A stretch of DNA of 64,000 nt from Thermoanaerobaculia bacterium. Its GTDB lineage: Bacteria; Acidobacteriota; Thermoanaerobaculia; UBA5066; Gp7-AA6. Location: the NCBI GenBank assembly GCA_035506175.1, contig DATJPZ010000049.1, positions 13,356 through 77,355 on the forward strand, given 5' to 3'. Both the position numbers and the translations under genes were made by a program. Under the pieces are notes generated by a model. The model searched no databases, was not told the origin of the DNA, and saw only the letters and a program-made list of their open reading frames with translations. This document shows positions 5,452 through 54,136 of this stretch, in pieces. Within the stretch, counting starts at the first letter, position 1, and every line of letters starts with the position of its first letter.

Positions 5452-5688
5452 TCAGCCGATCGAGCGGCCGAGCGCCGCTTCGCTCGCGCTGGCGCTCACG
5501 ACGGCGCAGGAGTCGATCGGCTCGACGAGCATGCCCGCCGACTCGATCTCGGAGCCCTCGACGTGAACGCAGCGGCGCTGGCGGATGTCGAGCGCGCCGC
5601 GGCGCCGACAGATGGGGCAGCGGACGATCGGTCGCGCCTGAGACACCATCGCTCCCAGGGGCAGCTTCGTGAAATCCTCGGTCAGCAT
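5452..5688 (-). CDS. Hypothetical small protein with CxxC...CxH motif (possible zinc ribbon)
   Basis: 78-aa ORF downstream of purA on the same strand; GGAGAGGAG SD-like sequence 9 nt upstream of ATG; no recognisable family. Confidence 0.3.
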   Translation of the reverse strand: MLTEDFTKLPLGAMVSQARPIVRCPICRRRGALDIRQRRCVHVEGSEIESAGMLVEPIDSCAVVSASASEAALGRSIG

Positions 5689-5770
5689 CGAAGGGACTCC
5701 TCTCCGGGCACGTGTCGGCGCCTCCGCCGAACCCCTTCTTCAAGAATCGGACCAGCGGGGTGAGGGAGCG

Positions 5771-25745: not shown

Positions 25746-27020
25746 TTAGGACGGAACGGCGCGCCGCAGCTCGAGGAGGAGCCGGGCGAGCGAGCTGCCG
25801 AGCGCGCTCGCCGCGATCTCGAGGGCGCGGTAGTCGTCGTCGGAGACGGGCGCGCCGAGGCGGTCGGCGTAGAGGAACGCGACGAGGCGGTCCTTGATCC
25901 GCACCGGATAGACCGCGCACGAGGCGGCGGCCTTGTCGCCGAGCAGCGCCGCGAGCTTCGGCGGCATCAGGATCCGCGAGAGCGCGCCGCGATGCGGCGA
26001 GCCCGAGAGCTTCACGAAGGCGAAAATGGACGGCTCGCCCCAGGGCAAACGAATGCCCGACACCTGGTCTCGCGTCAACCCGGAACCGCGCGCCGTCCAG
26101 CCGCGGATGCCGTCCTGAGCCGACGTCAGGAGCATCGCCCGCGGGAGGCGTCCGCACACGGTCTCGAGCGTCGACTCCGCGAGACGATCCCGACCGGGTC
26201 CGCGCGGATCGGGCGCGGCCGCCTCGGCCGCCTCCGCCCGCGGCGCCCACATCTCGCTGACCGCGGCATCCTCGGATTCCGCCGGCTTCCACATCCGGTC
26301 GGCGAGCTCGTCCGGCGTCAGCGGGTGCGGCGGTTCGAAATCCGGCAGCAGATCGGGGGCATCGGCGATCTCGCTCGACGCGTGCTCGGCCGAAAGGAAC
26401 GGCGCGGCGTAGCTGACCGAAACGGGCGGCCCGGCGGCGCCGGCGCCCGGGGAAATCGGAATCGGCCGCCCGCGGAAATTGACGAAGCGCCCCTGCAGCG
26501 ACGCCGGCTGCGTCGCCCGGGCCCGGTAGAGGCGCCGCTCTTCGTTGCGCTCGAGCTTATGGAGGACGCCGCGGAACTCGATCGGGATCGGGCGTCCGTA
26601 GAAGAGGTGAAACGCCTGGAGCAGTCGCACCTCGGAGATCACGGCGGGGATGACGGGGCGGCTCGTCACCGCGGAGATCTCGTCGACGGCGGCGAGGTTC
26701 GACGGATTCTTGAACGCGACGCGCACGCCGCGACCCTCGAGCGCGTAGGGCACGGCCGCGAGCCGCACGGCCGCGCGCTCGGGCAGGAGACGGACGACCT
26801 GCGGCGGCGCCTTGAGGATGTCCGACCACGAGACGTAGTCGCAGCGATGGATCGCGGAGAGCGCGCGCAGAAGATTCTCTTCGCCGAGCAGATCGCGGTC
26901 GAGCAGGATGGTGCCGAGGCGGAACGGCTCGCCCGTGTGTCGCTGGAATCCGAGGGCGCTCTGGACCGCCGTTTCGGACACGACGCCGTCGGCCACGAGG
27001 AGCTCGCCGATGCGCGGCAT
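25746..27020 (-). CDS. MshEN/T2SSE_N (GspE N-terminal) domain protein, paralog 1
   Basis: N-terminal about 140 aa match the GspE/MshE N-terminal domain (IGELLVADGVVSETAVQSAL...CDYVSWSDI...RVAFKNPSNLAAVDEI); Pro-rich linker; conserved C-terminal domain shared with paralog 2. Confidence 0.65.
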   Translation of the reverse strand: MPRIGELLVADGVVSETAVQSALGFQRHTGEPFRLGTILLDRDLLGEENLLRALSAIHRCDYVSWSDILKAPPQVVRLLPERAAVRLAAVPYALEGRGVRVAFKNPSNLAAVDEISAVTSRPVIPAVISEVRLLQAFHLFYGRPIPIEFRGVLHKLERNEERRLYRARATQPASLQGRFVNFRGRPIPISPGAGAAGPPVSVSYAAPFLSAEHASSEIADAPDLLPDFEPPHPLTPDELADRMWKPAESEDAAVSEMWAPRAEAAEAAAPDPRGPGRDRLAESTLETVCGRLPRAMLLTSAQDGIRGWTARGSGLTRDQVSGIRLPWGEPSIFAFVKLSGSPHRGALSRILMPPKLAALLGDKAAASCAVYPVRIKDRLVAFLYADRLGAPVSDDDYRALEIAASALGSSLARLLLELRRAVPS

Positions 27021-38185: not shown

Positions 38186-40579
38186 TCAGTGTTCCGCCTG
38201 CTCGTTCGGAGGCAGGGGGCCTTCCTCCGGGAGCTCGCCCTTCTTCGGTGTGTAGAAGGGCTGCTGCAGCGACCAGGGAAGTTTCGCGATCTCCTGCGAG
38301 CGCGCCGTCCATTCCTCGGTCGGCTGAGAACCCGCGACGAACGCCTCGAGAACGGGCAGGGGCGTGTCCGCCGTCGCCTTGAGGCCCGTGTCGTAGTCGA
38401 CCGGCATCAGGACGACGTTGGGCGGCGCCTCGAAGTCCTCCTGCGGGTCGATGCGGCCGTGATCCCGCATCTTCTCGAGAATCCGGATCCATATCGGCAG
38501 GGCGACGCGGGCCCCCTCGGCTCCCTTGCCGATCGAGAGCGTCTTCTGGTCGTTGCCGACCCAGACGCCGATCGTGTAGCGGGGCGTCATGCCGATGAAC
38601 CAGGCGTCGGTCCAGTCGTTGGTCGTCCCCGTCTTGCCGGCGATGTTGAGCTTCAGACCGGCGCGGGCGACGGCGGGCGCGGCCGTGCCGCGCTGGGTCA
38701 CGCCGCGCAGAATCTGCAGCAGCTGAAAGGAAGCCTGCGGGCTCGCGACCTCGCGCGGGTCGGGGTGGCTCTGCTCGAGGACGTCGCCGTTGGCGTCCGT
38801 CACGCGCTCGATGAGGTAGGGAGAAAACGCGAGGCCCTGGTTTGCGAAAACCATGTACGCGCCGGCGAGCTCGGTCAGCGTCACCTCGAAGGCGCCGAGA
38901 GCGAGCGAGGGATACGGCTCGAGAGTCTGGCGCACGCCGAGCCGGTGCGCCGTCTCGATGACACGGGGCAGCCCGACCATCTCGGCCACCCGGATCGCGG
39001 GGATGTTGTACGAGTGCTCGAGCGCCTTGCGGAAGGTCACGATGCCGTGGAACTTTCCGTCGTAGTTGCTCGGCCGGTAGGGCGGCTGGTGCGGGTCGAT
39101 CAGGATCGTGAGCGGACCGTCGAAGACCGTGTCTGCCCCGGTGTAGCCCTGCTCGAGCGCCGTCAGGTAGACGAACGGCTTGAACGCGGATCCGGCCTGC
39201 CGGAGGGCCTGCGTCGAGCGGTTGAACTTCGACTGTCCCCAGTCCGAGCCGCCGACCATCGCGCGGATCGCGCCGCTCGAGTTCTCGAGGATGAGCACGG
39301 CGCCCTGCTCGCGGGGCTCCTGGTCGAGCGCGGCAACGAGACCGCCGTCCTTCGCCTTCTCGAGCGTGACCGTGACGAGATCGCCGGGTCGGAGGATTTT
39401 CGCGGCCGAGCTCGCCCCGGTCCAGGCGACGGTGGCGTTGGGGAGAACGAAGACGCGCTTCCCGACGCGCACGTCGGCGCCGGCCGAGCCGGTCTTCGTC
39501 ACGACGGCGGGGAGGGCGGCACCGTCTTCGAGCTTCGCGTTCTCCCATGCCGGGTCGACGTAGACGTCGAGCGATTTGTAGCCGCTCTCGAAGAGGTTGC
39601 GCGGCCTGTGGAATCCGTGCCGGCGGGAGATCTGCCGGAGCCCCCAGCCGAGAGCCTCCTCGGACCAGGCCTGGAGGTCCGGATCCAACGTCGATTCGAC
39701 GCGCAGCCCGCGGCGGTAGAGGTCCTTCTCGCCGTACGTCTTCTCCAGGTACTGCCGGATCTCTTCCGAGAAATACGGACCGACGAGCGACTCCGGCAGC
39801 GAGGGGGCCTTCGGCAGCGGCTCCTGCTCGGCCGCCCGCTGCTCCGCGTCCGTGATGTAGCCCTCGGCGCGCATCCGGCGCAGCGCGGTCGCGCGCCGCG
39901 CGCGGGCGAGCGTCGGATTCCGGAACGGCGACTGGTCCTCGGGGCGCTGAACGATGCCGGAGAGGAGCGCGGCTTCGGCGAGCGAGACGTCCTTGACGCT
40001 CTTGCCGAAGTAGTAGCGGCTGGCGGCCTCGAAGCCGTAGTTGCCGTGGCCGAGGTAGATCTCGTTGGCGTACATCGTGAGGATCTGGTCCTTCGAGTAG
40101 CGCCGCTCGATTTCGAAGGAGACGAGTGCCTCGTTGACCTTGCGCGAGAGCGTCTTGCGGGGCGACAGGAAGATCGCGCGGGCGAGCTGCTGGGTCAGCG
40201 TCGAGCCGCCCTGCGCGTAGCCGCCCTGGCGCATGTTGGCGACGAGCGCGGAGAACGTGCGCCGAACGTCCACGCCGCCGTGTCGGAAGAAGTTCTTGTC
40301 TTCGGTGGCCACCAGGGCGTGCGTCAGGACGGCGGGGATGTCCGCGCGGGTGATCAGGGTCCGCCGCTCGATCGCGTACCGCGCGATCGTCGAGCCGTCG
40401 CGGGCGAAGATCTGGGTGACGATGTCCGGCCGGTACGTCGCGAGCTCCGAGACCCGCGGCACGCGGATGAAATTCGTGGCGAAGGACCCGACCACGGAAC
40501 CGAGAAACGCGATCAGCGCCAGGGGGAGCACGAGCGCGGCCGCACGGGCGAAGCCTTTCACGCTCCGATTGTGAGGCAT
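38186..40579 (-). CDS. mrcA: Penicillin-binding protein 1A (bifunctional transglycosylase/transpeptidase)
   Basis: GT51 motifs ([23 protein letters not shown]), transpeptidase [20 protein letters not shown]. Confidence 0.9.
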
Positions 40580-40613: not shown

Positions 40614-42677
40614 ATGGCGCGCGTTTCCGAACCCGGGAGTCCCCGCTCCTCCGGCAAGCCCCCGAGCTACCTCGAGGCCCAGGCGAAGGCGACCGGGCGC
40701 TTCCAGCTCACGACCGAATTCACGCCGCAGGGCGACCAGGTCCAGGCGATCGAGAAGCTCGTCCGCGGCCTCGAGGAGGGGCGCCGCGACCAGGTGCTGC
40801 TCGGCGTGACGGGCTCGGGGAAGACGTTCACGATCGCGAAAGTCATCGAGGCCGTCAACCGGCCGACCCTCGTCCTGTCGCACAACAAGACGCTCGCCGC
40901 CCAGCTCTACCAGGAGTTCCGCGCGTTCTTTCCGCAGAACTCCGTCGAGTATTTCGTCTCGTACTACGACTACTACCAGCCGGAGGCTTACGTCCCGCAG
41001 ACGGACACCTACATCGAGAAAGAGACCTCCCGGAACGAGGAGATCGACAAGCTGCGCCTGGCGGCCTCGAAGGCCCTCTTCGAGAGGCGCGACGTCATCG
41101 TCGTGGCGTCGGTGTCCTGCATCTACGGCCTCGGCGCCCCCGACTCCTACTACGACATGCTGGCGTACCTCGAGGTCGGCGACACGCAGGGGATGCCGGC
41201 CCTTCTCGCCAAGCTGGTCGCGATGCAATACGAGCGCACCCACATGGACCTCGCCCGCGGAAGTTTCCGCGTGCGGGGCGACGTCCTGGAGATCCAGCCG
41301 GCCTACGAGGACACCGCGGTCCGGGTCGAGTTCTTCGGCGACGAGATCGAGAAGATCACCAGGACCGACCCGCTGCGCGGCACGCCCCTCCAGAAAGTGG
41401 ACCGGCTCGCGCTCTATCCCCGGACTTTCTACGCGACGCCGCGCGAGACGCTCGAGCGGGCGATCGGCACGATACGGGTCGAGCTCGACGAGAGACTGGC
41501 CCGGCTGACAGAGGACGGCAAGCTGCTCGAAGCGCAGCGCCTTCACCAGCGCACGATGTTCGACCTCGAGATGATCAAGGAGCTCGGCTATTGCAACGGC
41601 ATCGAGAACTACTCGCGGCACCTCTCGGGCCGCGCCGCGGGCGAGCCGCCGCCGACGCTCCTCGACTATTTCCCGAAGGACTTTCTCCTGGTCGTGGACG
41701 AGTCGCACGTCACGCTGCCGCAGGTGCGCGGCATGTACTTCGGCGACCGGTCCCGCAAGGAGGTGCTCGTCGAGTACGGGTTCCGCCTGCCCTCGGCCCT
41801 CGACAACCGGCCCCTGACGTACGACGAATTCCGCACCCGCATCCATCAGGTCATCGCGGTCAGCGCCACGCCGGGGCCGGAAGAGCTCGAACGCAGCGGG
41901 GGCGAGATCGTCGAGCAGGTCATCCGGCCCACGGGTCTCGTCGACCCGGCGATCGAGGTGCGGCCGGTCAAGGGCCAGGTGGACGACCTGCTGGCGGTCG
42001 TGCGACAGGCCGCCGCGGACGGCGAGCGCGTGCTCGTGACGACGCTGACCAAACGCATGGCCGAAGAGCTGACCAACTACTTCACGGAAGTCGGCGTCCG
42101 ATGCCGCTACCTCCACTCCGACATCGAGGTCATGGAGCGGGTCGCGATCCTGACGGACTTCCGCCGGGGGGTCTTCGACTGCCTCATCGGGATCAACCTG
42201 CTCCGCGAGGGATTGGACCTTCCCGAGGTCGCCGTCGTCGCGATCCTCGACGCCGACAAGGAGGGGTTCCTCCGCAGCGAAACCTCGCTCATCCAGACGG
42301 CCGGGCGCGCCGCACGGAATCTGAAGGGCCGCGTCCTCTTCTACGCCGACGCCGTGACCGATTCCATGCGCCGGGCGATGGAGGAGACGGCGCGGCGGCG
42401 GGCCCTGCAGGAGGCGTACAACCGGGAGCACGGCGTGGTGCCGGCCTCGATCGTCAAGCAGGTCAACTCGCCGCTCGTCCGGATGTCGAACCTCGACTAT
42501 TACGAGGCCCCGTCGATTCCGCGAGCGGACCTGCCCGATCCCGAGTCGCTCCGCCGGCGCACCGCGGAGCTCGAGAAGCAGATGCGGGCCGCCGCCAAGG
42601 AGCTCGACTTCGAGCGGGCCGCCGCGCTCCGGGACGAGCTTCGGGCGCTGCGCGAGCTCGAGATCTTCCGGGGCTAA
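40614..42677 (+). CDS. uvrB: Excinuclease ABC subunit B
   Basis: [10 protein letters not shown] Walker A, DESHVT, beta-hairpin region, C-terminal UVR domain [25 protein letters not shown]. Confidence 0.95.
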
Positions 42678-43045
42678 CCGGGTTTCTGCGCGTCCGGACT
42701 CGCGCCCGCGGGCCTCGCGCCGGCCGGCGTCGCGGCGGGTTTCGGGGTCGGAGTCCGGAGCCCGAGCGGGTTTTTCCGGAGGTAGAGCCGGGCCGCGCCC
42801 TCGACCGGGTCGCCCGAAACCGGCGACGCGATGAGCCTCGGCTTGAAGGCGTTGTCGACCCCGACGCTGACGAGGGCGTTTCCGAGCTGCGCGTCGGGCA
42901 GGTTGGCGACGGCATCCGCCGGGCGCAGGCCGTACGGGACGTTGCAGGGGTAGGCGGCGTGGCACCGCGCGAGCGGCACGAGCTGCGCCGTCGCGGGCGC
43001 CGCGACCGAGGCGAAGACGAGGCCGGCGAGGAGCGCGCGCTTCAT
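42674..43045 (-). CDS. Small secreted hypothetical protein (signal peptide, CHAAYPC pair)
   Basis: Start set at internal ATG 43045 ([21 protein letters not shown] signal) forming an ATGA overlap with the upstream zinc-ribbon gene; the longer ORF to 43243 would overlap that gene. Confidence 0.5.
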
Positions 43046-43257
43046 ATCCAGTGGCACGCGCGGGCGAGACCGGCGAGGACGAGAAGCAGGGCCGCGATCG
43101 CCGCTGCCCACACCGCGGTGCGCGACTTGGTCGGCAGCGGACGCTGCCGCGTGTAGAAGCCCGTCTGCCACCGCTCGAGCTCGCGGTTGCATTTCGGGCA
43201 GACCGGAGTGCCGGGCTCGACCGGGGTGTAGCAGTACGGGCACTCGTACATCGGCAT
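43042..43257 (-). CDS. Small zinc-ribbon membrane protein (CPYC...CPKC plus C-terminal TM helix)
   Basis: 71 aa; two CxxC pairs 13 residues apart, then hydrophobic helix AVWAAAIAALLLVLAGLA. Confidence 0.5.
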   Translation of the reverse strand: MPMYECPYCYTPVEPGTPVCPKCNRELERWQTGFYTRQRPLPTKSRTAVWAAAIAALLLVLAGLARACHWI

Positions 43258-43388
43258 GAGGCGATCATACCGCCGGGCTCCGGCGCGGCGTTCCCCCGCC
43301 GCGAATCTCTCCTTCGGCCCCGGCCCGACGGAGTCGGCCCGGGCTCCGGCGCGGCGTTCCGCCGCCGCGAATCGGGTACACTGACGTC

Positions 43389-45203
43389 GTGGTCGAGGCT
43401 CGCCGCGGACCGGAGAATCTGCCGGATTCCCCGGGTGTCTATCTCTTCCGCGGCGACAGGGGCAGGATCCTCTATGTCGGGAAAGCCCTGTCGCTGCGCA
43501 AGCGCGTGGGGTCCTACTTCAACCCCGCCTACGGCGGCGCGAAGGAGGAGGCCCTGCGCCGGCTCCACCGCGAGGTCGAGACCATCTCGACCCGGACGGA
43601 GCTCGAGGCCCTCCTCCTCGAGAACACCCTCATCAAGAAGCACCGTCCCCGGTACAACGTCTGCCTCCGCGACGACAAGACCTACCCCTACATCAAGGTC
43701 ACGACGGGGGAGGCCTGGCCGCGGGCGCTGGTCACCCGGCGGGTCGAGGAGGACGGCCACTCGTACTACGGGCCCTTCTGGGGAGGTCTCGCCCGCCGGA
43801 TCATGCGAATGATCACGCGGCATTTCCAGATCCGGACCTGCACGATCGAGATCGACGGCAACCTGCCGAGGCCCTGCCTCTACTACGACCTGCACGCGTG
43901 TCTCGGGCCCTGCGTCTCCGGGCTGACGACGAAAGCGGCCTACGACGCGGCGGTCGCCGACGTCGTCCTGTTTCTCGAGGGCCGCAACCGGGAGCTCGAG
44001 GCGAGCCTGACCGAGAAGATGCGCTCCGCCTCGCAGACCGAGAACTTCGAGATGGCGGCCGCTTACCGCGACGCCCTCCGGACCGTGCGCGACGTCTCCG
44101 AGCATCAGGTCGTCCAGTCCCTGAAGGGCGAGAACGTCGACGTCTTCGGTTTCTTCGAATCCGGACAGGACGTGGCGGTGTGCGTGCTCGTCGTGCGCGC
44201 CGGCGTGCTGCAGGACCGCCGGGACTTCTTTTTCGAGAAGGCCCAGGAGCTCGATCCGGCGGCGTTTCTCGAGGCGTTCCTGCCCCAGTTCTACGACGCC
44301 AATCCGTTCCTGCCCGCCGAGATTCACCTGCCCATCGGGATTCCGGGCGCGGCCCTCGTCGAGGGCTACATCGCCGAGCGCCGCGGCGTGAGGGTCGCCG
44401 TCCGGACGCCCCGCCGGGGCCCCGCCGTCGAACGCGTGAAGATGGCCGAGGCGAATGCGCGCGAGCGCCACCGGGTGCGCTTCCGCGGCGCCGGGGGCGA
44501 CGAGGCCGTCGCCGTCGAGCGCCTGGCGCGCGCGATCGGTCTCGGCGTGCCGCCGCGCCGCATCGAGGCCTTCGACATTTCCCACACCCAGGGCACCGAC
44601 AGCGTCGGCTCGCTCGTGGTCTTCGAGGAGGGGAAGCCGAAGAAGGCCGACTACCGGCTCTTCAACGTCGCGTCCCAGGGGCTGCTCGAGCCCGACGACT
44701 TCCGGAGCATGGCCGAGGTCGTGGACCGCCGGTACCGCCGCCTGAAGGCGGAAGAGAGCGCGATGCCCGACCTCGTCCTCGTGGACGGAGGGCGCGGGCA
44801 GCTGCAGGCCGCGCTGACGGCGCTCGATCGCCTCGGACTCGACCTGCCGGCGGTGGGGCTCGCCAAGCGCGAGGAGGAGATCTGGATGCCGGGGCGCCCG
44901 GACCCCGTGCGGTTGTCGCGGAAGGATCCGGCGCTGCAGCTCGTCCAGCGCGTGCGCGACGAAGCGCATCGGTTCGCGATCTCGCGACACCGGGCCCGGC
45001 GAGACAAGCGCATGCGCCAGACCGGCCTGACCGAGATTCCGGGCATCGGGCCGGTGAAGGCCCGCCTCTTGCTTCGGCGCTTCGGCTCGGTCAACGGGTT
45101 GCGCGGCGCCGACCCGACCGAGATCGCGGCCGCCGTCGGGCCGACGACCGCGCGGGCCGTGACGGCGTTTCTCGACTCGCCGGGAGGCTCGGCCGGCGCA
45201 TGA
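43389..45203 (+). CDS. uvrC: Excinuclease ABC subunit C
   Basis: GIY-YIG N-terminus (PGVYLFRGDRGRILYVGKA), UVR domain, EAFDISH, C-terminal HhH. Confidence 0.93.
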   Translation: MVEARRGPENLPDSPGVYLFRGDRGRILYVGKALSLRKRVGSYFNPAYGGAKEEALRRLHREVETISTRTELEALLLENTLIKKHRPRYNVCLRDDKTYPYIKVTTGEAWPRALVTRRVEEDGHSYYGPFWGGLARRIMRMITRHFQIRTCTIEIDGNLPRPCLYYDLHACLGPCVSGLTTKAAYDAAVADVVLFLEGRNRELEASLTEKMRSASQTENFEMAAAYRDALRTVRDVSEHQVVQSLKGENVDVFGFFESGQDVAVCVLVVRAGVLQDRRDFFFEKAQELDPAAFLEAFLPQFYDANPFLPAEIHLPIGIPGAALVEGYIAERRGVRVAVRTPRRGPAVERVKMAEANARERHRVRFRGAGGDEAVAVERLARAIGLGVPPRRIEAFDISHTQGTDSVGSLVVFEEGKPKKADYRLFNVASQGLLEPDDFRSMAEVVDRRYRRLKAEESAMPDLVLVDGGRGQLQAALTALDRLGLDLPAVGLAKREEEIWMPGRPDPVRLSRKDPALQLVQRVRDEAHRFAISRHRARRDKRMRQTGLTEIPGIGPVKARLLLRRFGSVNGLRGADPTEIAAAVGPTTARAVTAFLDSPGGSAGA

Positions 45204-47086
45204 GGGCGGCGTTCGACCACGAGGGCGATATCCGGGGAGTCGACCTCCTCGGGGCCCTCGTCGCCCTGTGGCGCGAAGGCGCCAGCGGCTCGCTCCAGTT
45301 CTCGCGCGCGGGCGCCACGGCGGGGTTCGAGGTCGTGGCGGGAGAGATCGTCGCGACGTCCTCGTCGGACCCGCGCTTCGAGACGGCGGCAATCCTCGTG
45401 CGGGCGGGCAAGCTCGACGCGCGGACCCTCGAGCGCCTGGCCGCGCCGGAGGGAGCCGACCGGGCGCTCCTCGCTCTGCAGGCCGGCGTCCTGACGCGCC
45501 GCGAGTGGCGCTGGGGCGAGAAGATCCGCGCCGTCGAAATCCTCTCGGACCTGCTGACGTGGCTCGAGGGCGAATACTGGTTCCTGCGGACCAACGAGGA
45601 CGGGCGCGAGACGACCGAGCCGCGTCTGCCCATTCCGCGACTCGTGCTCGAGCTGTTCCTGCGGTCCCGGGACCGGAGCCTCGTCCTGAAGCACCTCGGC
45701 GGCGCCGACGTTCCCCTCGCGCGCGCCCCCAGCTTCGACGCCGAGTTTGCGACGTTTGGCCTGACGGCCGACGCGGAGTCGGTCGTCCGGCTGATCGACG
45801 GCACGTCGACCGCCGAGCAGATCGCCAGCGAGGCGCCCGCCGAAGCCTTCGCGGTCGAGAAGCTTCTCGCGGCTCTCGTGACGCTCGGGCTCGTGCACCC
45901 GGAGTTCGGCGCCGGCGGGCGGGCGACGCGGGCGGCCGACGCGACGGACGGTGAGCTCGCCGCGCCCCACGAGGCGCCGGCGCAAGCCGTCGCGGAGGCG
46001 GCGGCCGGGGACGAGGAAGAATGGAAATCAGGGGACGAAGGGGAGGCCGAGGACGGGGACGAACCCTCCGACGACGCCCTGGAGGCCGGCGAGGAAGAGC
46101 CGGAGACCGACGATGAATCCGCCTCGGACATCGAGGAGGTCGAGATCCACGCCGTCGAGGAGGAGCTTCGGGCGTCGTCCGTGGACGAAGGACCGAGCGA
46201 GCTCGGCGACGACGCGGGATGGCGACGCGACCTGGGGTCGGCGCTGGACGAGGCGGCCCCGGGTGCACGGGCGATCCCCGCGGATCTCGAGTTGGCCGCG
46301 CTCCGGTCAGACGACGCCGCCGGCGGGGGCCGCCCGCGCGAGATCGAGATCGGCGGCTCGGCGGATGCCTTCGGCCGCCCGCTCGACTCCGCGACCGGCG
46401 TGGGCGAGCTCGAAAGGCCGAAGCCGCGTGGACTCTCGCCCCTCGTGTGGGTGCTCGCCGCCCTCGGCCTCGCGCTCGTCGTGACGTTGTGGCTCCGGAG
46501 CCGCGGCCCGTCCCCGCCGCCGACCGAGAGCGGCGCCGCCGTGCCGTCGCCCGCCGCAGAAACTCCCGCGGTCGCCGCACCCGAGCCCACGGCGGCCGCC
46601 ACGGTTGCGCCCCTGCCCGCGGCCGAAGCACCGGCGGCCCTGCCGGCGGCGCTCCCGACGACGGCACCGACACCGGTGCCCACGGCGCCACCGCCGCGCG
46701 GCAAACCCACCCCCAGGCCGGCCGTCGCGAAGGGGCCCGCGGCGCCACCCTCCGCGGCCGGATCGCCGCGCGAGGCGTCGTCGTCGCGCCAGCACTGGCT
46801 CGAGCGGGCCGCGCGCGACGCCCAGAAGCTCGCGGCGGACCGGAAGACGCACTACGCCATCCAGCTCGAGCTCGCCTGCGAGGTCCAGTCCCTCACCGAC
46901 GCCTTCCAGCACGACCGTCCGCCGGGCAGCATGTGGCTTCTCGCGACGCCGCATCAGGACAGGACCTGCTTCCGCGTTCTGTGGGGCCACTACCCGACCA
47001 TCGAAGCCGCGCGGCGGGGCCTGTCCGGCACGCCGCGATTCTTCTCGACACCGAAGAACCGGCCGGCCGTCACCGGGGTGCGCTGA
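45200..47086 (+). CDS. DUF4388 domain protein with acidic linker, TM helix, Pro/Ala-rich region and C-terminal SPOR-like domain
   Basis: ATGA overlap with uvrC; N-terminal DUF4388-like (DLLGALVALWREGASGSLQF...ILVRAGKLD); TM LSPLVWVLAALGLALVVTLWL; C-terminal YAIQLELACEV...FRVLWGHYPTIEAARRGL resembles a SPOR peptidoglycan-binding domain. Confidence 0.55.
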   Translation: MRAAFDHEGDIRGVDLLGALVALWREGASGSLQFSRAGATAGFEVVAGEIVATSSSDPRFETAAILVRAGKLDARTLERLAAPEGADRALLALQAGVLTRREWRWGEKIRAVEILSDLLTWLEGEYWFLRTNEDGRETTEPRLPIPRLVLELFLRSRDRSLVLKHLGGADVPLARAPSFDAEFATFGLTADAESVVRLIDGTSTAEQIASEAPAEAFAVEKLLAALVTLGLVHPEFGAGGRATRAADATDGELAAPHEAPAQAVAEAAAGDEEEWKSGDEGEAEDGDEPSDDALEAGEEEPETDDESASDIEEVEIHAVEEELRASSVDEGPSELGDDAGWRRDLGSALDEAAPGARAIPADLELAALRSDDAAGGGRPREIEIGGSADAFGRPLDSATGVGELERPKPRGLSPLVWVLAALGLALVVTLWLRSRGPSPPPTESGAAVPSPAAETPAVAAPEPTAAATVAPLPAAEAPAALPAALPTTAPTPVPTAPPPRGKPTPRPAVAKGPAAPPSAAGSPREASSSRQHWLERAARDAQKLAADRKTHYAIQLELACEVQSLTDAFQHDRPPGSMWLLATPHQDRTCFRVLWGHYPTIEAARRGLSGTPRFFSTPKNRPAVTGVR

Positions 47087-47143
47087 CGGGGCGGCGGCTT
47101 TCTGCTACCCTGAGGAACTCGGCCCACCGACCTTGACGCGCCC

Positions 47144-48769
47144 ATGAGCACACCAGCGGCTTCGGCCGGATTTCGCGGCTCTCTGTCGGAGACGCCGCTG
47201 CCGCAGGTGCTCCGCCGCATCTTTCTCGAGAGCCTGAAGGGAACGCTCTCCCTCGTCCACGGTGACGAGACCCGCCATCTCTTCTTCGAGAAGGGGGAGC
47301 TCCGCACCGCGACCTCGTCCCGCGAAGGCCAGCGCATCGGCGCGTTCCTGAAGCGCCGCGGCTGGATCACCGACACCGACCTGAACTGGGCTCTCGACAC
47401 GGTGGCCAAGCAGGGGCGCGCGCGGCTCGGCAAGATCCTCGTCGAGCGCGGCCTGGTCTCCCGCACCGTGCTCGACGCCGAGATGCGCCGGCTCGTCGAG
47501 GAGATCGTCTTCTCGACCTTCGCGTGGGACTCGGGCGAGTACCGCTACCAGGCCTCCGGCGGCGTCCTCGACCCGGACGTCGCCCTGACGCTCTCGACGG
47601 CGGCGATCATCGTCGAGGGCATTCGCCGGCTGCCGGAGAGCGAGGCGTTCCGCGAGCGGCTGGGCGACGGGCACCGCGTGCCCATGCTCGCCACCGATCC
47701 GATGTCGCGCTACCAGTACCTGCCGCTGGCCCCGCAGGAGGCGTATCTCCTGTCGCGGATCGACGGGATCCTCGACGTCGACTCGCTCTTGAAGATCGCG
47801 GGCACCTCCCGCGCGGCGATGGCGAAGATCCTCTATGCACTCGTCTCCTGCGGCATCGTCGAATGGAAACAGGACGGCGCCCAGCGTCCCGCCAGCGGCC
47901 GGGGCGGCTTCCACGGGTTGAACGTCGAAGTCTCGGCGGCGCCGGCGGACCGGTCGCCCGGCCACGCCGAGCTCGTCAAGAACACCTATCGCCGGATCGA
48001 CTGGCTGACGCACTACGAGCTGCTCGGCATCGTGCGCGACGCGCCGCCCGAAAAGGTCGCCGAGGCTTATTTCGAGCGCAGCCGGCTCTTCCATCCGGAT
48101 CTGCGGCACCGCGAGGACCTCGCGCGCTTCGAGAAGGAGCTGACGGCGGTATTCGAGCGGATGAAGAAGGCCTACGAGACGCTCTCCGATCCAGACAAGC
48201 GAGCGCTCTACGACCAGAGCCTCGACGCGGCGCCCGCGCCCGTCCTGACGGCCGAGGCCGACCCGGAGATGCGCAAGAAGCTCGCCACCCAGAACTTCCG
48301 CCGGGCACGGCAGCTGATCGAGGACAAGGACTACCACCCGGCCGTCGAAATGCTGCGCGAGGCGATCCGGTTCGTCCCGGACAACCCCGAGTACCGGTAC
48401 GTGCTCGCCCAGGTCGAGTTGAAGAATCCGAACTGGACCGACCAGGGGCTCGCGAACCTCAAGGAAGCCGCTCGTCTCGACAGCCGCCGCGTCGCCTATT
48501 CGCTCGAGGCGGCGCGCGCACTCCTCGAACACAAGCGCCCCCACGAAGCCGAGCCCTTCGCGCGCCGCGCGGTGTCGCTCGATCCGTCGCCGGAGAGCGA
48601 AGAGCTCCTGCAGCGGACGCTCGCCGCGCAGGCGGCTTCACCGATGCCGGCGGTTCCGGCCGAGCCCGGAGCCCCGTTGCCGGCCGGCGAGGCGACGCCG
48701 ACCGGGGAAGCGGCGTCGGCCCCGCAGCCCACCGGCCTTCTCTCCCGGCTCTTCCGGCACCGCGGTTGA
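47144..48769 (+). CDS. DUF4388 - J-domain (DnaJ) - TPR protein
   Basis: N-terminal LPQVLRRIFLESLKGTLSLVHGDETRHLFFEKGEL (DUF4388); J-domain with HPD motif (YELLGIVRDA...FHPDL...AYETLSDPDKRALYD); C-terminal TPR-like. Confidence 0.7.
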   Translation: MSTPAASAGFRGSLSETPLPQVLRRIFLESLKGTLSLVHGDETRHLFFEKGELRTATSSREGQRIGAFLKRRGWITDTDLNWALDTVAKQGRARLGKILVERGLVSRTVLDAEMRRLVEEIVFSTFAWDSGEYRYQASGGVLDPDVALTLSTAAIIVEGIRRLPESEAFRERLGDGHRVPMLATDPMSRYQYLPLAPQEAYLLSRIDGILDVDSLLKIAGTSRAAMAKILYALVSCGIVEWKQDGAQRPASGRGGFHGLNVEVSAAPADRSPGHAELVKNTYRRIDWLTHYELLGIVRDAPPEKVAEAYFERSRLFHPDLRHREDLARFEKELTAVFERMKKAYETLSDPDKRALYDQSLDAAPAPVLTAEADPEMRKKLATQNFRRARQLIEDKDYHPAVEMLREAIRFVPDNPEYRYVLAQVELKNPNWTDQGLANLKEAARLDSRRVAYSLEAARALLEHKRPHEAEPFARRAVSLDPSPESEELLQRTLAAQAASPMPAVPAEPGAPLPAGEATPTGEAASAPQPTGLLSRLFRHRG

Positions 48770-49365
48770 CCCCTCTTCTGACGGGCCTCGGCCTGTCCGC
48801 CGCCGCGGGACTGAACGCCTGGGCGATCCTCCTGCTCTTCAACGGCCTCTTTCTGCTTCTGCCTCAGGAGTTCCCCGGTCCCACGGCGGCGATCCTGTCG
48901 AGCCACTTCGCCGTGACCGCCGCGCTCGTGCTGTTCCTGACGGAGTTCGTCGCCGACAAGATTCCGGTCGTGGACCACCTGTGGAACCTGCTGCAGACCC
49001 TCCTGCGGCCCGTCGTCGGCGCCCTGCTCACGCTGGCGGCCGTACCCGAGACGACGCCTGCCGAGCGCGTCGGTCTCGCGCTCGCGGGCGCCGCCGCGAC
49101 CCTCGCCGCGCACCTCGTGAAGTCGACGACGCGGCTCACCTCCACCGCCGCCACGCGCGGCATGGCGCAGCTCGCCCTGTCCCTGGCCGAGGACGCGCTC
49201 GCGCTCGCTCTGGGCGCTCTCGTTTTCTTCGTGCCGTCGTTTACGTGGATCCTGATATTCGCCCTCGTCTTCCTCCTCGTGCTCGACCGCCGCCGAGTCG
49301 GCCACGCCCTGGGCGTCCTCTTCTTCCGTCTCAAGCATCCGAGGCGTCTTCTGCGGCAGTCGTGA
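48766..49365 (+). CDS. DUF4126 family membrane protein
   Basis: TTGA overlap with the upstream stop; LTPLLTGLGLSAAAGLNAWAILLLFNGL typical DUF4126 N-terminus; 4-5 TM. Confidence 0.6.
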   Translation: MTPLLTGLGLSAAAGLNAWAILLLFNGLFLLLPQEFPGPTAAILSSHFAVTAALVLFLTEFVADKIPVVDHLWNLLQTLLRPVVGALLTLAAVPETTPAERVGLALAGAAATLAAHLVKSTTRLTSTAATRGMAQLALSLAEDALALALGALVFFVPSFTWILIFALVFLLVLDRRRVGHALGVLFFRLKHPRRLLRQS

Positions 49366-49366
49366 C

Positions 49367-49810
49367 GTGCCGTATTTCCTCGACGGCAACAACCTGATCG
49401 GCCTGGTTCGCAAGACGGCGCGCCCGTCGCCGGCCGACCGCCAGGCGCTCGTCGGCGAGATCGCAGACCGGCTGCGGCGGACGCGCGCCCGGGCCACGAT
49501 CTTCTTCGACGGCGGCCCCGGCGAGCGACCGGCCTCGCTCGGCCCCCTCTCGGTGCGCGCCGCCGGCGGCAGCGCCGACGACGCGATCGTGCGCGCCGTG
49601 GAGCAGGCCCCGACACCGGCGGAAGCGATCGTGGTCACCGCCGACCGGGAGCTCTCGGCGCGCGTGCGATCGGCCGGCGGCAAAGTGGTCGCGCCGGAGA
49701 GGTTTTTCGAGCGCTTCGGCGCCGGGGAGGCGCCGGTTGCCGGGCCTGGCGCGGTCGACGTCGAGGAGTGGCTGCGGTACTTCGCGGACGAGAGCAATCG
49801 GGACGCTTGA
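49367..49810 (+). CDS. NYN/YacP-like (PIN-like) domain protein
   Basis: GTG start 1 nt after the DUF4126 stop; YFLDGNNLIG...IFFDGGPG...VVTADREL. Confidence 0.6.
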   Translation: MPYFLDGNNLIGLVRKTARPSPADRQALVGEIADRLRRTRARATIFFDGGPGERPASLGPLSVRAAGGSADDAIVRAVEQAPTPAEAIVVTADRELSARVRSAGGKVVAPERFFERFGAGEAPVAGPGAVDVEEWLRYFADESNRDA

Positions 49811-49915
49811 TGCAGCGGCAGATCATCCAAATCCCGGAGACGGGGGTCGGGGCGCACCGTCGTGAGCCCGGCCTCGACCCCGGCCCCCGCCGCCTTCACC
49901 CCGTGTAGAATGGGG

Positions 49916-50320
49916 GCGGCCCCGAGCGGGCCACGCGATCGCTCCGGTCTCCTTTCAACGAGGAGCCGGAGAGGAAAGTCCGAACTCCACACGGGCAGCA
50001 TGCCGGGTAACGCCCGGTCGCGGCGACGCGAAGGAAAGTGCCACAGAGAACAGACCGCCTTCCGAAAGGACGGCAAGGGTGAAACGGTGCGGTAAGAGCG
50101 CACCGCTCCGCCGGCAACGGCGGGGGCACGGTAAACCCCATGCGGAGCAAGGCCAAATAGGGAGGCAGCGGGCGCCCGTCCCGCCTCACCAAAAGTGAGC
50201 TGTCTCCGGGTCGGCTGCTCGAGCCCGAGGGCGACCTCGGGCCCAGAGGAATGATCGCGACCCCGGCCGGCACAACCGGCCGGGACACGGGATTCGGCTT
50301 ACCGGTCCGCTCGGGGCTTT
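49916..50320 (+). ncRNA. rnpB: RNase P RNA, bacterial type A
   Basis: Universal motifs GAGGAAAGUCCG and AGGGUGAAACGGUGCGGUAAGAGCGCACC, ACAGAACC..CGGCUUACCGG 3' region; P1 pairing 49919-49932 with 50304-50317; TAGAAT -10 at 49906-49911. Confidence 0.85.
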
Positions 50321-50390: not shown

Positions 50391-51323
50391 ATGAGCAGCC
50401 TGACTTGTCCCCCGCCGTTGAAGCGGGGCGCGACCGTCGGCGTGGCGGCGATCTCGGGGCCGGTCGACGAGGGCCGTCTCCAGTCCGGCGTCGCACACCT
50501 CGAGAGGCGCGGCTACCGCGTCGTGCTCGCGCCCAACGTCGGCCTCCGGCGCGGCTTCCTCGCCGGCACCGACGAGGAGCGCGCCGAGGGCTACCGGTCT
50601 CTCCTGCGCGATCCCTCGATTGATGCCATATTCTTCGCGCGCGGCGGCTACGGCGCCTCGCGGGTGCTGTCGCGGCTCGATCCGGCCGAGGCCGCGTCGC
50701 GGCCCCGCATCCACCTCGGCGGGTCTGACCTGACGGCGCTCTTCGCGTTTCTCGCCCGGCGCTGCGGCCTTGTCACCTACTACGGGCCGATGGTCGCGGT
50801 CGAGATGGCCAACGGCGAGGAACTCGACTGGGAGACCGTGCTCGCCGGGAACCCGCCGCCGCCCTATCGGATACCGCCCGCCCACGTGCTCGCGCCCGGC
50901 GCGGGGGAGGGGCCTCTCGTCGGCGGCTGCCTCTCGATCCTCGCCTCACTCTGCGGCACCCCGGACGCGATCGACGGCCGGGGTGCCGTCCTGTTCTGGG
51001 AAGACGTGGGCGAGGACACCTACCGGCTCGACCGAATGTTGACCCAACTGGAGCGGTCAGGTACATTCGATGGACTGCACGCCATGCTCATCGGCTCGAT
51101 TTCGCCCGGCCCGCGCGGCGGCGAGTCTCCTGAGATCGTCGGCGCCTGGCTCCGCGACTACTTCGCGGGAGCGCCGTTCCCGGTGGTCTCCGGGTTTCCG
51201 GCGGGCCACCTGCCCCGTCCCCGGACGATTCCGCTCGGCGCGCCGGTCCGGGTCGACGCGGGCTCCGGCCGGCTCGACTTTGGCGTGGCGACCGGGGCCG
51301 CGGGGGCGCCGTGCCCGGCGTGA
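50391..51323 (+). CDS. ldcA: LD-carboxypeptidase (muramoyltetrapeptide carboxypeptidase, peptidase S66)
   Basis: GGYGASR, nucleophile context GGSDLTAL, FWEDVGE, C-terminal His. Confidence 0.8.
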   Translation: MSSLTCPPPLKRGATVGVAAISGPVDEGRLQSGVAHLERRGYRVVLAPNVGLRRGFLAGTDEERAEGYRSLLRDPSIDAIFFARGGYGASRVLSRLDPAEAASRPRIHLGGSDLTALFAFLARRCGLVTYYGPMVAVEMANGEELDWETVLAGNPPPPYRIPPAHVLAPGAGEGPLVGGCLSILASLCGTPDAIDGRGAVLFWEDVGEDTYRLDRMLTQLERSGTFDGLHAMLIGSISPGPRGGESPEIVGAWLRDYFAGAPFPVVSGFPAGHLPRPRTIPLGAPVRVDAGSGRLDFGVATGAAGAPCPA

Positions 51324-52108
51324 AGGCCGTCTTCAAATCGGGGCCGGGGGGCGGCGGCAGGAATCCCTACGAGAAGTTTCTCGTCAGTCACCTGATGGGG
51401 GAGATCCTCTTTTCGGAAGGCGACATCGGCACCGACATGTACATCATTCAGTCGGGCACGGTGGAGCTGCTCAAGGCGATCGGCGGCGAGACCCGCGTCC
51501 TGTCGACCCTCGAGAAGGGCGACTTCTTCGGCGAGATGAGCGTCCTCGAGGACGTCCCCCGGTCGGCCTCCGCGCGCGCGAAGACCGACGTCGAGCTCGT
51601 GCGCATCAATGGCGCGACGTTCGACGCGATGTTGAAGAGCAACACCGAGATCGCCGTCCGGATGATGCGGAAGCTCTCGCGGCGCCTGCGCGAAGTCACG
51701 GCCATGCTCGAAGACGCCGTCGGCCGCCGGGTCCCCGAAGAAGAGAAGCCCGCCCCGCGCCGCGTCGAGCCAGAGCGCAACGCGTGCCGGCTCGTGTGCG
51801 ACGACCCGTCGGCCGAGTTCTACCTGAACCGGGAGGGCGACACCCTCGTCGGCCGGAGCGACCCCGTCACGGGAATCACCCCCGACGTGGACCTGACGCC
51901 GCTCGACCCGCAGCGCTCGACCTCGCGCCGCCACGCCAAGCTCTACCAGATGAGCGACACGTACTACGTCATGGAAGAGATCGGCGTGATGAACGGAACC
52001 TACGTCAACGGCAACCGGCTGACGACCGGCGTCCCGATTGCCGTGCAGAACGGCGACGTCCTGAAGTTCGGCCTGGTCTCGATGACCTTCCACGCCCCCG
52101 AGAGCTAG
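51311..52108 (+). CDS. Cyclic-nucleotide-binding domain + FHA domain protein
   Basis: GTG start overlapping the ldcA end by 13 nt; cNMP-binding motifs (GDIGTDMYIIQSGTVEL, FGEMSVL, RSASARA); C-terminal FHA (TLVGRSD...SRRHAKL...NGTYVNGNRL...GDVLKFG). Confidence 0.7.
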   Translation: MPGVKAVFKSGPGGGGRNPYEKFLVSHLMGEILFSEGDIGTDMYIIQSGTVELLKAIGGETRVLSTLEKGDFFGEMSVLEDVPRSASARAKTDVELVRINGATFDAMLKSNTEIAVRMMRKLSRRLREVTAMLEDAVGRRVPEEEKPAPRRVEPERNACRLVCDDPSAEFYLNREGDTLVGRSDPVTGITPDVDLTPLDPQRSTSRRHAKLYQMSDTYYVMEEIGVMNGTYVNGNRLTTGVPIAVQNGDVLKFGLVSMTFHAPES

Positions 52109-52177: not shown

Positions 52178-54136
52178 GTGGGCCCCGCGCGCGCCGAGAA
52201 GCTCGCGGCCGAGGGATTCCGGACGATCGGCGACTTCCTGCTCGCGTTGCCGTTCCGGTACGAGGACCGCCGGCGCTTCGCGACGATCGCCAGCCTCGAA
52301 TGGGACCGTCCGGCGACGGTCCTCGTGACCTTCCGGGGCGTGCGGTCGGTGCGGATGCGCCGCGGGCTGCTGCGCGTCGAGGCGCTCGCCGACGACGGCA
52401 CCGGGGCGGTCCGCGTCGTCTGGCACAACCGGTATCCATCCTTCGCGAAGGCGCTCGACGGCGCGCGGGCCGCGCTCTACGGCGCTCCGACGGCGTCGTC
52501 CAGGGGCGAGATGCGGATCGAGAACCCCGAGACCGAGTTCATCGCGGCGGGCGAGGAGGCGGACCCCGTCCACTCGGGGCGCGTCGTCGGCGTCTACCAT
52601 CGGGCGGCCGACGTCGGTACACGGCTCTGGCGCAGCCTCGTGCGGAGAACGCTCGACCGCCTGAGCCCGGGCTTCGCCAGCGCGGCGGCCGCCGCTCCCG
52701 CAATCCGCTCGGCGCTCGAGGAGGCGCACTTCCCGTCCTCGGAAGAGGCGGCGGGGGCCGCCCGGCGGCTGCTGGCGCAGGAGGAGCTCCTCGTCCTGGC
52801 CTCCGGCATCGAGGAGAAGCGGGCGCGCCTCCATGCGCGCCGCGGGATCCGGCTCGAAGCCAGCGACGCGTTGCGCCAGCGCACGCGCGAGGCCCTGCCG
52901 TTTTCGCTCACGGGCGCCCAGCGGCGCGCCGTGCGCGAGATCGCGGCCGACCTCGCCTCGGGACGCGCCATGGCCCGGCTCCTCCAGGGCGACGTCGGGT
53001 CGGGCAAGACGGTCGTGGCGGGACTCGCCCTGATGCTGGCCGCGGGCAACCGCGTCCAGGGGGCGCTCATGGCGCCCACCGAGATCCTCGCCGAGCAGCA
53101 CGCCGAGAGCCTCGCGTCGTGGCTGACCGGGGCCGGCGTGCGCCTGGCACTCCTGACCGGGCGCGTGCGCGGCGCCGCGCGCCGCCGCCTGCTCGAGGAG
53201 CTCGCCTCGGGACGAATCGACGTCCTCGTCGGCACGCACGCGCTCGCGGAGGCGCCGGTGACCTTCCGGCGGCTCGGCCTCGTGGTCGTGGACGAGCAGC
53301 ACCGCTTCGGCGTGGCGCACCGCGCGCGCCTGTTCCGGAAGGGCGACGCGCCCCACGTCCTCGTCATGACCGCGACGCCGATTCCCCGGTCCCTCGCGTG
53401 GGCGATCTACGGCGAGCTCGACGTCTCCGTCCTCGACGAAAAGCCCCCCGGGCGCGGCGAGATCGTCACGCGGGTGCGCGACGAGGAAGGGCGGGCGAAG
53501 GTCTACGCGTTCGCCGCCGAGCGGGTCGCGGCCGGCGAGCGGGTTTACGTCGTCGTCCCGGCAATCGAGGAGGGGGAACGCGAGGTGGCGGCCACGCGCG
53601 CGACGGCGCGGCGGCTCGCGGAGGCCCTCCCCGGCGTCCGCGTCGAGGTTCTCCACGGCCGGATGCCGGCGCCCGACCGCACCACCGTGCTGCGGGACTT
53701 CGCCAGCGGCCGCGCCCCGGTCCTCGTGTCGACGACGGTCGTCGAGGTCGGGGTGGACGTGCCCGAGGCGACGCTCATGGTCGTCGAAAACGCCGAGGTG
53801 TTCGGGCTCGCCCAGCTCCACCAGCTCCGCGGCCGCGTCGGCCGGAGCACGCGCGCATCCTGGTGCGCGCTGATCGCGGGGCCCGGGGCGACGCCGGAGG
53901 CCCGCCAGCGCCTCGCCGTCCTCGAGCAGACGTCGGACGGCTTCGCGATCGCCGAGCGCGACCTCGAGGCGCGAGGTCCGGGCGACCTGCTCGGCAGCCG
54001 CCAGTCCGGCCTGCCGGCAATGCGCGTGGCGGATCCCGTTCGGGACCTCGCGGCCCTCGGGGAGGCGCGGCGGCGGGTGGCGGCCCTTCGCGAGGCGGGA
54101 CAGGCGGTGCGGAGCGACCTGTTCGGGTATCCGTAG
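52178..54136 (+). CDS. recG: ATP-dependent DNA helicase RecG
   Basis: GVGPARAEKLAAEGFRTIGDFLLALPFRYEDR wedge region, Walker A GDVGSGKT, DEQHRFGV, QLRGRVGR; GTG start with AGGA 7 nt upstream. Confidence 0.92.
   Translation: MGPARAEKLAAEGFRTIGDFLLALPFRYEDRRRFATIASLEWDRPATVLVTFRGVRSVRMRRGLLRVEALADDGTGAVRVVWHNRYPSFAKALDGARAALYGAPTASSRGEMRIENPETEFIAAGEEADPVHSGRVVGVYHRAADVGTRLWRSLVRRTLDRLSPGFASAAAAAPAIRSALEEAHFPSSEEAAGAARRLLAQEELLVLASGIEEKRARLHARRGIRLEASDALRQRTREALPFSLTGAQRRAVREIAADLASGRAMARLLQGDVGSGKTVVAGLALMLAAGNRVQGALMAPTEILAEQHAESLASWLTGAGVRLALLTGRVRGAARRRLLEELASGRIDVLVGTHALAEAPVTFRRLGLVVVDEQHRFGVAHRARLFRKGDAPHVLVMTATPIPRSLAWAIYGELDVSVLDEKPPGRGEIVTRVRDEEGRAKVYAFAAERVAAGERVYVVVPAIEEGEREVAATRATARRLAEALPGVRVEVLHGRMPAPDRTTVLRDFASGRAPVLVSTTVVEVGVDVPEATLMVVENAEVFGLAQLHQLRGRVGRSTRASWCALIAGPGATPEARQRLAVLEQTSDGFAIAERDLEARGPGDLLGSRQSGLPAMRVADPVRDLAALGEARRRVAALREAGQAVRSDLFGYP

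Follow-up and report, generated by a model that had tools for sequence, protein, structure and literature searches.

SPOR domains target denuded septal glycan (PMC6895207). In the Escherichia coli proteins DamX, DedD and FtsN the domain is found at the C-terminus, carried on a long low-complexity periplasmic spacer that is joined through a single transmembrane (TM) helix to a cytoplasmic N-terminus. PATAN domains (Pfam DUF4388) have been characterised as protein–protein output domains that localise to the inner membrane and bind PilB and PilC (bioRxiv 10.1101/2021.06.11.447907), and are known from the cyanobacterial proteins PixE, PixG and PatA and from SgnC of Myxococcus, where the partner is a REC domain. 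The class III J-domain co-chaperones include the membrane-anchored DjlA, TopJ of the Mycoplasma terminal organelle and the eukaryotic TPR-J proteins; in these an HPD-containing J domain, lacking the Gly/Phe and zinc-finger regions, is attached to a targeting or client-binding module, and Hsp70 is brought to one cellular site. All of these domains meet in two adjacent genes that lie directly downstream of the excinuclease gene uvrC in a 64,000-nucleotide (nt) stretch of DNA, referred to here as the window (GenBank assembly GCA_035506175.1, contig DATJPZ010000049.1, positions 13,356 to 77,355), which is approximately 72% G+C and derives from a metagenome-assembled genome of the Thermoanaerobaculia (Acidobacteriota), a soil lineage. 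The first of the two genes, g2, encodes a PATAN-SPOR protein and the second, g3, a PATAN-J-TPR protein; together they combine known domains in a new, lineage-specific way, and their link to uvrC is unusually stable; they are described at the level of annotation and not as a demonstrated new mechanism. The reading favoured here, to which we give a probability of roughly 0.45, is that of a lineage-specific envelope module in which the SPOR-anchored PATAN protein docks its paralogue, the J-domain co-chaperone, and which is co-expressed with uvrC, no role in repair being indicated.

The two genes that follow are named g4 (DUF4126) and g5 (NYN), and the same five genes with the same coordinates are found in an independent public gene call on this genome. 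Their products match, exactly or nearly so, database entries that carry the name 'Thermoanaerobaculia bacterium'. With lengths in amino acids (aa), the cluster is laid out as follows.

43389..45203, + strand: uvrC, 604 aa, GTG start; complete excinuclease C
45200..45203, + strand: ATGA start/stop overlap of uvrC and g2 (uvrC TGA at 45201-45203, g2 ATG at 45200)
45200..47086, + strand: g2, 628 aa; bitopic membrane protein, PATAN-acidic linker-TM-Pro/Ala spacer-SPOR
47144..48769, + strand: g3, 541 aa; soluble PATAN-J domain-TPR protein
48766..49365, + strand: g4, 199 aa, TTG start; DUF4126 polytopic membrane protein
49367..49810, + strand: g5, 147 aa, GTG start; YacP/Rae1-type NYN (PIN-like) nuclease

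The product of uvrC carries the Pfam domains GIY-YIG, UVR, UvrC_RNaseH and UvrC_RNaseH_dom (two RNaseH-like domains) and HHH_5. Beyond the ATGA overlap, the junctions are a 57-nt gap between g2 (end at 47086) and g3 (start at 47144), a TTGA overlap between g3 and g4 (g3 stop codon 48767-48769, g4 TTG at 48766) and a 1-nt gap between g4 and g5 (g4 ends at 49365, g5 GTG at 49367); all four had been given in the original prediction, which was made from the letters of the sequence, and all four are borne out. Overlaps of 4 nt are frequent locally, being found in 3 of the approximately 11 co-directional gene pairs within 10 kb on either side. Despite this, the tight coupling of uvrC to g2 is real and conserved: the same 4-nt overlap is present in 52 of 65 species-level loci and in two distant lineages (L080 and L081), with one subclade having a gap of 132–161 nt instead. 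The g3-g4 junction is likewise a 4-nt overlap in 67 of 75 species-level loci.

A one-genome-per-species scan queried with g3 recovered 77 Thermoanaerobaculia/Acidobacteriota loci (g3 identity 67–96%), and the order uvrB, uvrC, g2, g3, g4, (g5), LD-carboxypeptidase, cyclic nucleotide monophosphate (cNMP)-binding/FHA gene, recG was found in every locus with sufficient flank (76 species loci). A search with a g2 profile gave 80 metagenome contigs, and uvrC was directly 5' of g2 in every one of them having upstream sequence. Three further lineages keep both the order and the g2 architecture at identities to the window of 46–62% for g3, 66–76% for uvrC and 42–56% for the g2 N-terminus, so that the juxtaposition, which the original prediction had allowed might be due to chance, recurs in all three sets of relatives. 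The uvrC-g2-g3-g4-g5 array is thus a conserved cluster of one Thermoanaerobaculia lineage, and the g2/g3 pair is as conserved in that lineage as uvrC and recG, which argues for an important role.

The flanks are equally conserved. Approximately 20 kb around the cluster is collinear in nearly all relatives, with L9 and a class A penicillin-binding protein (PBP1A) upstream and an epimerase, an M50 peptidase, scpB and rluB downstream; the synteny is therefore partly inheritance within a slowly rearranging housekeeping block, and its use as proof of function has to be tempered. It could be argued from this collinearity that there is no module at all, and that g2, g3, g4 and g5 are unrelated housekeeping genes whose short junctions reflect genome compaction, an explanation that would also suit the frequency of 4-nt overlaps in this genome and the dispensability of g5, which is missing in three relatives (L002, L048 and L074). 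We consider this unlikely: the paralogues g2 and g3 are always adjacent, the g3-g4 overlap is widely conserved and one database protein (P0207) is a fusion of g3 with DUF4126, insertions are seen in the uvrB-uvrC interval and in that from g5 to the LD-carboxypeptidase gene but never inside uvrC-g2-g3-g4, and the L080 lineage retains this block despite a different upstream flank.

The envelope reading starts from the architecture of g2, which is divided into five parts.

45215..45907, + strand: cytoplasmic PATAN (DUF4388) module, aa 6-236, with a degenerate alpha-clip and a C-terminal winged-helix-like subdomain
45917..46414, + strand: acidic low-complexity linker, aa ~240-405, up to 20 D/E per 40 aa
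46433..46495, + strand: single TM helix, aa ~412-432, hydropathy peak 2.34
46502..46765, + strand: Pro/Ala-rich periplasmic spacer, aa ~435-522, 24-25 A+P per 40 aa
46769..47083, + strand: C-terminal helix and divergent SPOR domain, aa 524-628, with invariant Cys 560 and 590

The DUF4388 model (PF14332) scores 23.5 bits on g2 of the window against a cut-off of 25, and 30.5, 36.2 and 33.7 bits on orthologues from three more distant lineages. Profile comparison with hhalign aligned aa 6-236 of g2 with aa 9-243 of g3 over 229 columns (probability 99.5%, E 8e-23), and the two N-termini are therefore taken to be a paralogous module of approximately 235 aa that consists of a PATAN domain with a helical clip and a winged-helix-like part. 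These modules are the best-conserved parts of their proteins, with at least 69% (g2) and at least 80% (g3) identity across the clade, and the AlphaFold2 (AF2) model of the g2 module has a predicted local distance difference test (pLDDT) score of 85.5. The acidic linker that follows is weakly conserved among homologues. No signal peptide was seen at the N-terminus of g2; the TM helix precedes the SPOR domain, is kept in the L080, L081 and L084 orthologues and recurs in the same layout in distant orthologues, which places the SPOR domain on the extracytoplasmic side. A match of g2 to the NCBIfam GltJ model (17.9 bits against a cut-off of 450) was dismissed, as it lies within the Pro/Ala low-complexity stretch.

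The C-terminal domain has been assigned through its homologues and its predicted fold. A profile of 33 homologous g2 C-termini gave the DamX SPOR domain as its sole match in the PDB (E 0.005), and weak Pfam SPOR matches were found in 22 of the 33 (best E 0.0012). The AF2 model, with a pLDDT of 91.6, has a helix followed by a beta-alpha-beta-beta-alpha-beta arrangement (strands E, helices H: E29-36, H39-46, E55-62, E65-75, H78-87, E100-103), and the top three Foldseek matches to this model are the SPOR domains of DamX, DedD and CwlC, with that of RlpA at a TM-score of 0.51/0.65. On these grounds the g2 C-terminus is read as a divergent SPOR domain. DamX is both the sole profile match and the best fold match, and two g2 homologues have been named DamX automatically by JGI. 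Two Cys residues occupy invariant columns of the g2 SPOR alignment, and they recall the disulfide that is essential in the SPOR domain of FtsN (bioRxiv 10.1101/2022.07.01.498525); by analogy, the pair would fit a periplasmic location. The overall layout of g2 is that of DamX, DedD and FtsN, from which it differs in several respects: its cytoplasmic part is a PATAN module of 235 aa, of a kind not encountered among characterised SPOR proteins, it has an acidic linker of 160 aa, its SPOR domain is too divergent for Pfam and it has no FtsN-like essential domain, its septal placement being predicted.

The second protein, g3, is soluble, and three regions of it are referred to below.

47333..47494, + strand: alpha-clip inside the PATAN domain, aa 64-117, with two tandem MshEN-like RLG..G..L..L motifs
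48008..48214, + strand: J domain with HPD, aa 289-357 (Pfam DnaJ)
48296..48634, + strand: TPR region, aa ~385-497 (Pfam TPR_16, TPR_14, TPR_19)

Here Pfam is unambiguous, with DUF4388 at 73.2 bits, DnaJ (PF00226) at 51.4 bits against a cut-off of 27.8, and three TPR families. The HPD motif is intact (FHPD; LFHPD in the consensus of distant homologues). Neither DnaJ_C nor DnaJ_CXXCXGXG was found in g3 by Pfam, and the NCBIfam DnaJ, TopJ and CbpA models match its J-domain segment only, those of DnaJ and CbpA at 18–45 bits against cut-offs of 338–619. This is the composition of a class III J-protein, and g3 is proposed to share the logic of that class; it would differ from DjlA and TopJ in that its targeting would run through a PATAN domain and a separate SPOR-anchored paralogue.

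Residues 11-165 of g3 map to positions 1-120 of the DUF4388 model, and an insertion is therefore present. This is the alpha-helical clip, which g2 and g3 have in common with PixE, PixG, PatA and SgnC, although the RLG signature is gone from the clip of g2 and the partner domains of the pair are SPOR via a TM helix, and J with TPRs. The g3 clip scores 35.5 bits (E 6e-9) with the NCBIfam model NF053729, an 'MshE-related c-di-GMP-binding' motif, which also matches 12 of 14 distant g3 homologues (best E 1e-12). As in the MshEN domain of Vibrio cholerae MshE (PMC5013675), there are two tandem helical-hairpin motifs, and in both 24-residue repeats R-[LI]-G, G10, L17 and L21 are conserved at 88–100% in the g3 family. 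The clip departs from MshEN in having Lys at position 7 of motif 1, a spacer of 6 instead of 5 residues, and Val or Leu at position 24 of both repeats, where the Gln of MshEN forms a hydrogen bond with the ligand. Binding of a ligand of the cyclic di-GMP (c-di-GMP) type is possible on these motifs.

The clip is one lead to another explanation, in which the target of g3, and possibly also of g2, would be a type IV pilus or secretion ATPase or else a polarity GTPase, regulated in response to c-di-GMP, the position next to uvrC being irrelevant. The PATAN domains that bind PilB and PilC control pilus polarity (bioRxiv 10.1101/2021.06.11.447907), and Myxococcus has PATAN proteins near MglA (PMC11580455). 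The window itself encodes an MshEN protein (25746-27020) and a cNMP-binding/FHA protein (51311-52108). The conserved block, however, has no pilus, secretion-ATPase, MglA/MglB or chemosensory genes, the SPOR and J domains have no place in known PATAN pathways, and the Gln that contacts c-di-GMP in MshEN is the residue that has been replaced; a role in polarity or motility is accordingly given a low probability, similar to that of unrelated housekeeping genes.

The last two genes have straightforward assignments. The g4 protein matches DUF4126 (PF13548) at 120 bits over model positions 1-171 of 175 and has several hydrophobic segments, whilst g5 matches NYN_YacP (PF05991) at 27.4 bits against a cut-off of 24.6, as do its orthologues; acidic residues are visible in its segments LDGNN, FFDGG, ADD and TAD and are presumably catalytic. 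No PADLOC model matched any of g2-g5, and an anti-phage defence system was rejected, the sole matches, which are generic, being to Pycsar effectors and coming from the cNMP domain that the neighbouring cNMP/FHA gene encodes. With these families the protein-level part of the original prediction stands. Its two consecutive proteins with N-terminal DUF4388-like domains were recovered, g3 directly and g2 through its orthologues and hhalign; the acidic linker, TM helix and Ala/Pro stretch of the first were confirmed by composition and hydropathy and its SPOR-like C-terminus by the DamX profile match, the homologue matches and the AF2 fold, though Pfam is silent on it in the window; the J domain with HPD and the TPRs of the second, and the DUF4126 and YacP/NYN assignments, were verified by Pfam.

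In the envelope module that is favoured here, the SPOR domain of g2 is predicted to hold the protein at peptide-free (denuded), septal or polar glycan strands, by analogy with SPOR domains elsewhere. Its PATAN module, exposed in the cytoplasm, would dock g3, by direct contact of the two paralogous modules or via a partner that both share; once at this membrane site, g3 would activate DnaK/Hsp70 on clients bound to its TPRs. The DUF4126 membrane protein g4, whose gene is coupled in translation to g3 and which one database entry shows as a fusion with g3, is a candidate partner of g3 and would likely be its partner or client. The MshEN-like clip of the g3 PATAN domain may add c-di-GMP or a related input, and uvrC would supply the promoter and the translational coupling for g2.

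Several points weigh against this reading. Contact between g2 and g3 is pure inference from paralogy and adjacency, and localisation, DnaK recruitment and ligand binding are also inferred. The model of the g2 N-terminal module found nothing significant in the PDB with Foldseek (best E 0.17, to GATOR1 subunits), Pfam SPOR (PF05036) gave no match to g2 of the window at E<=0.1, the Foldseek E-value of the SPOR model is just 1.6e-3, and, on a reading of the alignment, the DamX residues reported to be important for septal targeting are not all retained. To these may be added the Val or Leu at position 24 of the g3 clip, the clip score that falls slightly below the NCBIfam cut-off of 38, and two features of transcription that are considered next, namely promoters that are assigned from footprints and possible read-through into g3. 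What the reading would mean, if true, is a new route by which Hsp70 is brought to a defined site of the envelope, by a SPOR-anchored PATAN protein and a PATAN-J protein, and an extension of the role of PATAN domains beyond pilus control. The Acidobacteriota are abundant in soil and genetically almost unstudied, with division and envelope-maintenance proteins that are largely uncharacterised, and the conserved coupling to uvrC provides a testable hypothesis of repair/envelope co-regulation.

Expression of the cluster was approached by phylogenetic footprinting, and three features define its probable transcription units.

43377..43382, + strand: -10-like hexamer TACACT, ending 6 nt 5' of the uvrC GTG
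47103..47111, + strand: extended -10-like element TGCTACCCT, of TGnTAnnnT type, in the g2-g3 gap
49906..50317, + strand: downstream boundary, consisting of TAGAAT (49906-49911) and rnpB (RNase P RNA, 49923-50317; Rfam RF00010, 274 bits)

Of 63 related loci, 59 have a hexamer of the form TA[ACG]A[AC]T that ends 5–7 nt 5' of the uvrC start codon, the background being 0.2% per 25-nt window; this argues for a leaderless uvrC mRNA and for uvrC as the gene that opens its unit. In 72 of 76 loci, TGnTAnnnT or TAGAAT occurs in the 60 nt that precede g3 (background 0.8%), and the substitutions seen in this element fall at the n positions only, as they would in an extended -10 promoter. Because this gap element is conserved, g3-g4-g5 are probably transcribed from a promoter in the gap, which leaves g2 as the one gene in tight coupling with uvrC. 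The most likely arrangement is therefore of two adjacent transcription units, uvrC-g2 from a leaderless uvrC promoter and g3-g4-g5 from an extended -10 promoter, an assignment that probably holds on the footprints. The single operon running from uvrC through the J-domain gene that the original prediction proposed is not supported. Read-through from uvrC-g2 into g3 is possible since there is no convincing terminator: a terminator scan gave 11 sites, weak and mostly intragenic, against 4.9 ± 2.3 expected, and a candidate at 47081-47096 was rejected, as it overlaps the g2 stop codon and its hairpin is not conserved.

The rnpB gene lies 112 nt 3' of g5 on the same strand, a position that is kept in all six relatives checked, two of which are without g5; it was considered as the 3' end of the operon and set aside, having its own -10-like hexamer here and in relatives. 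Elsewhere in the window, TCTGGTAGCCT (572-582, + strand), also of the TGnTAnnnT type, stands 13 nt before the start, at 596, of a gene for a POT-family transporter, and its sharing of the extended -10-like pattern of the g2-g3 gap suggests that this is a common promoter form in the genome.

The function put forward in the original prediction was that of a damage-to-division coupling module. In the form considered here, g2 would be made stoichiometrically with UvrC, its SPOR domain at the septum would delay or license division during excision repair, and g3/DnaK would control the activity or turnover of g2. The genomic context is what speaks for it: the conserved ATGA overlap reaches into distant lineages, uvrC is directly upstream of every g2 homologue found, and uvrB and recG belong to the same conserved block. 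There is also precedent. YneA of Bacillus subtilis (PMC13396833) is a division inhibitor induced by the SOS response to DNA damage that, like g2, combines one TM helix with an extracytoplasmic peptidoglycan-binding domain, and the level of DamX influences filamentation in uropathogenic E. coli (PMC9233674). YneA, however, is small, carries a LysM domain and is controlled by LexA, whereas g2 has 628 aa and a SPOR domain, its cytoplasmic domain is large and conserved, and nothing in it points to control by damage; indeed, known checkpoint inhibitors are small and fast-evolving, in contrast to the large and highly conserved g2.

The region upstream of uvrC gives no encouragement to such a circuit. 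No SOS-type GTTC-N7-GTTC box was found upstream of uvrC, and across the window the 46 matches compare with approximately 50 expected, a result that concerns a single motif which may not be the LexA motif of this host. The uvrC footprint contains no conserved palindrome, and there is no conserved operator between the divergent genes; the promoter footprint looks constitutive. The g3-g5 genes have a promoter-like element of their own, no DNA-binding or DNA-repair domain is among the domain assignments of g2-g5, and the block, which is collinear as a whole, also holds rnpB, the LD-carboxypeptidase gene, scpAB, rluB and other housekeeping genes. uvrC shares operons with unrelated genes in other bacteria, E. 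coli uvrY-uvrC being an example. Nothing was found that ties the g2/g3 pair to DNA damage, and there is no indication that g2-g5 function in excision repair. The damage-to-division reading is thus not supported and is held to be improbable, more so than either of the other alternatives. A variant in which g2, kept in fixed ratio with UvrC, septal via SPOR and possibly gated by c-di-GMP, recruits g3/DnaK through its PATAN domain, so that constriction would be tuned to excision repair by means other than a LexA circuit, is if anything slightly less probable. Of the original prediction as a whole, then, the domains and the gene order hold, and the single operon and the damage-to-division function do not.

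The same region has features of its own. A 32-nt GC-rich direct repeat (43276-43307 and 43342-43373, + strand) was examined as a regulatory element and rejected, since it is a tandem duplication private to this genome among 165 loci. It forms part of a tandem duplication of approximately 66 nt, to which the L002 locus has a similar local duplication, and each 32-nt copy has a short inverted repeat (CGCGGCG...CGCCGCG) just 5' of the -10-like box. Between uvrB and uvrC there are two minus-strand genes, for a 71-aa Zn-ribbon protein (43042-43257) and a 123-aa protein (42674-43045); the Zn-ribbon gene is divergent from uvrC, and a conserved ATCATAC (TATGAT on its own strand) just 5' of its ATG suggests a second leaderless promoter.

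Outside this lineage, PATAN-J-TPR proteins are widespread (277 clusters at E<1e-30). The distant PATAN-J genes that could be placed are not beside uvrC; one sits between priA and fmt and three in unrelated contexts, so that there is no general association of PATAN-J proteins with repair, a further point against damage coupling. The priA-fmt case is a DUF4388-J gene of the Myxococcales, in the stretch 113-5242 (+ strand) of L077, and, as priA encodes the replication-restart helicase, is a single instance of another DNA-transaction neighbour. In L079 a different NYN protein (PF01936 with OST-HTH/LOTUS; 4821-5753, - strand) is convergent with the distant g3 homologue P0246, away from uvrC; it is the second case, independent of the first, in which a NYN nuclease neighbours the PATAN-J-TPR family.

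Around the cluster, the window encodes four + strand repair genes within 36 kb, mutS (18697-21252), uvrB (40614-42677), uvrC (43389-45203) and recG (52178-54136), among which the housekeeping genes murJ, prs, L25, L9, scpB and rluB are interspersed. Downstream of g5, a gene for an LD-carboxypeptidase (Peptidase_S66; 50391-51323, + strand) overlaps by 13 nt the cNMP-binding and FHA gene at 51311-52108, which is followed by recG; this trio is conserved in every relative, and with up to 97% identity the cNMP/FHA protein ranks with the best-conserved of the block. The MshEN protein at 25746-27020 (- strand) has 424 aa, matches PF05157 at 47.6 bits and is a candidate c-di-GMP receptor. The class A penicillin-binding protein (38186-40579, - strand; Transgly and Transpeptidase, 797 aa) is divergent from uvrB and syntenic in most relatives. 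In E. coli, the SPOR proteins DamX and DedD stimulate class A penicillin-binding proteins (PMC7642682), and by analogy a link between this protein and g2 is conceivable.

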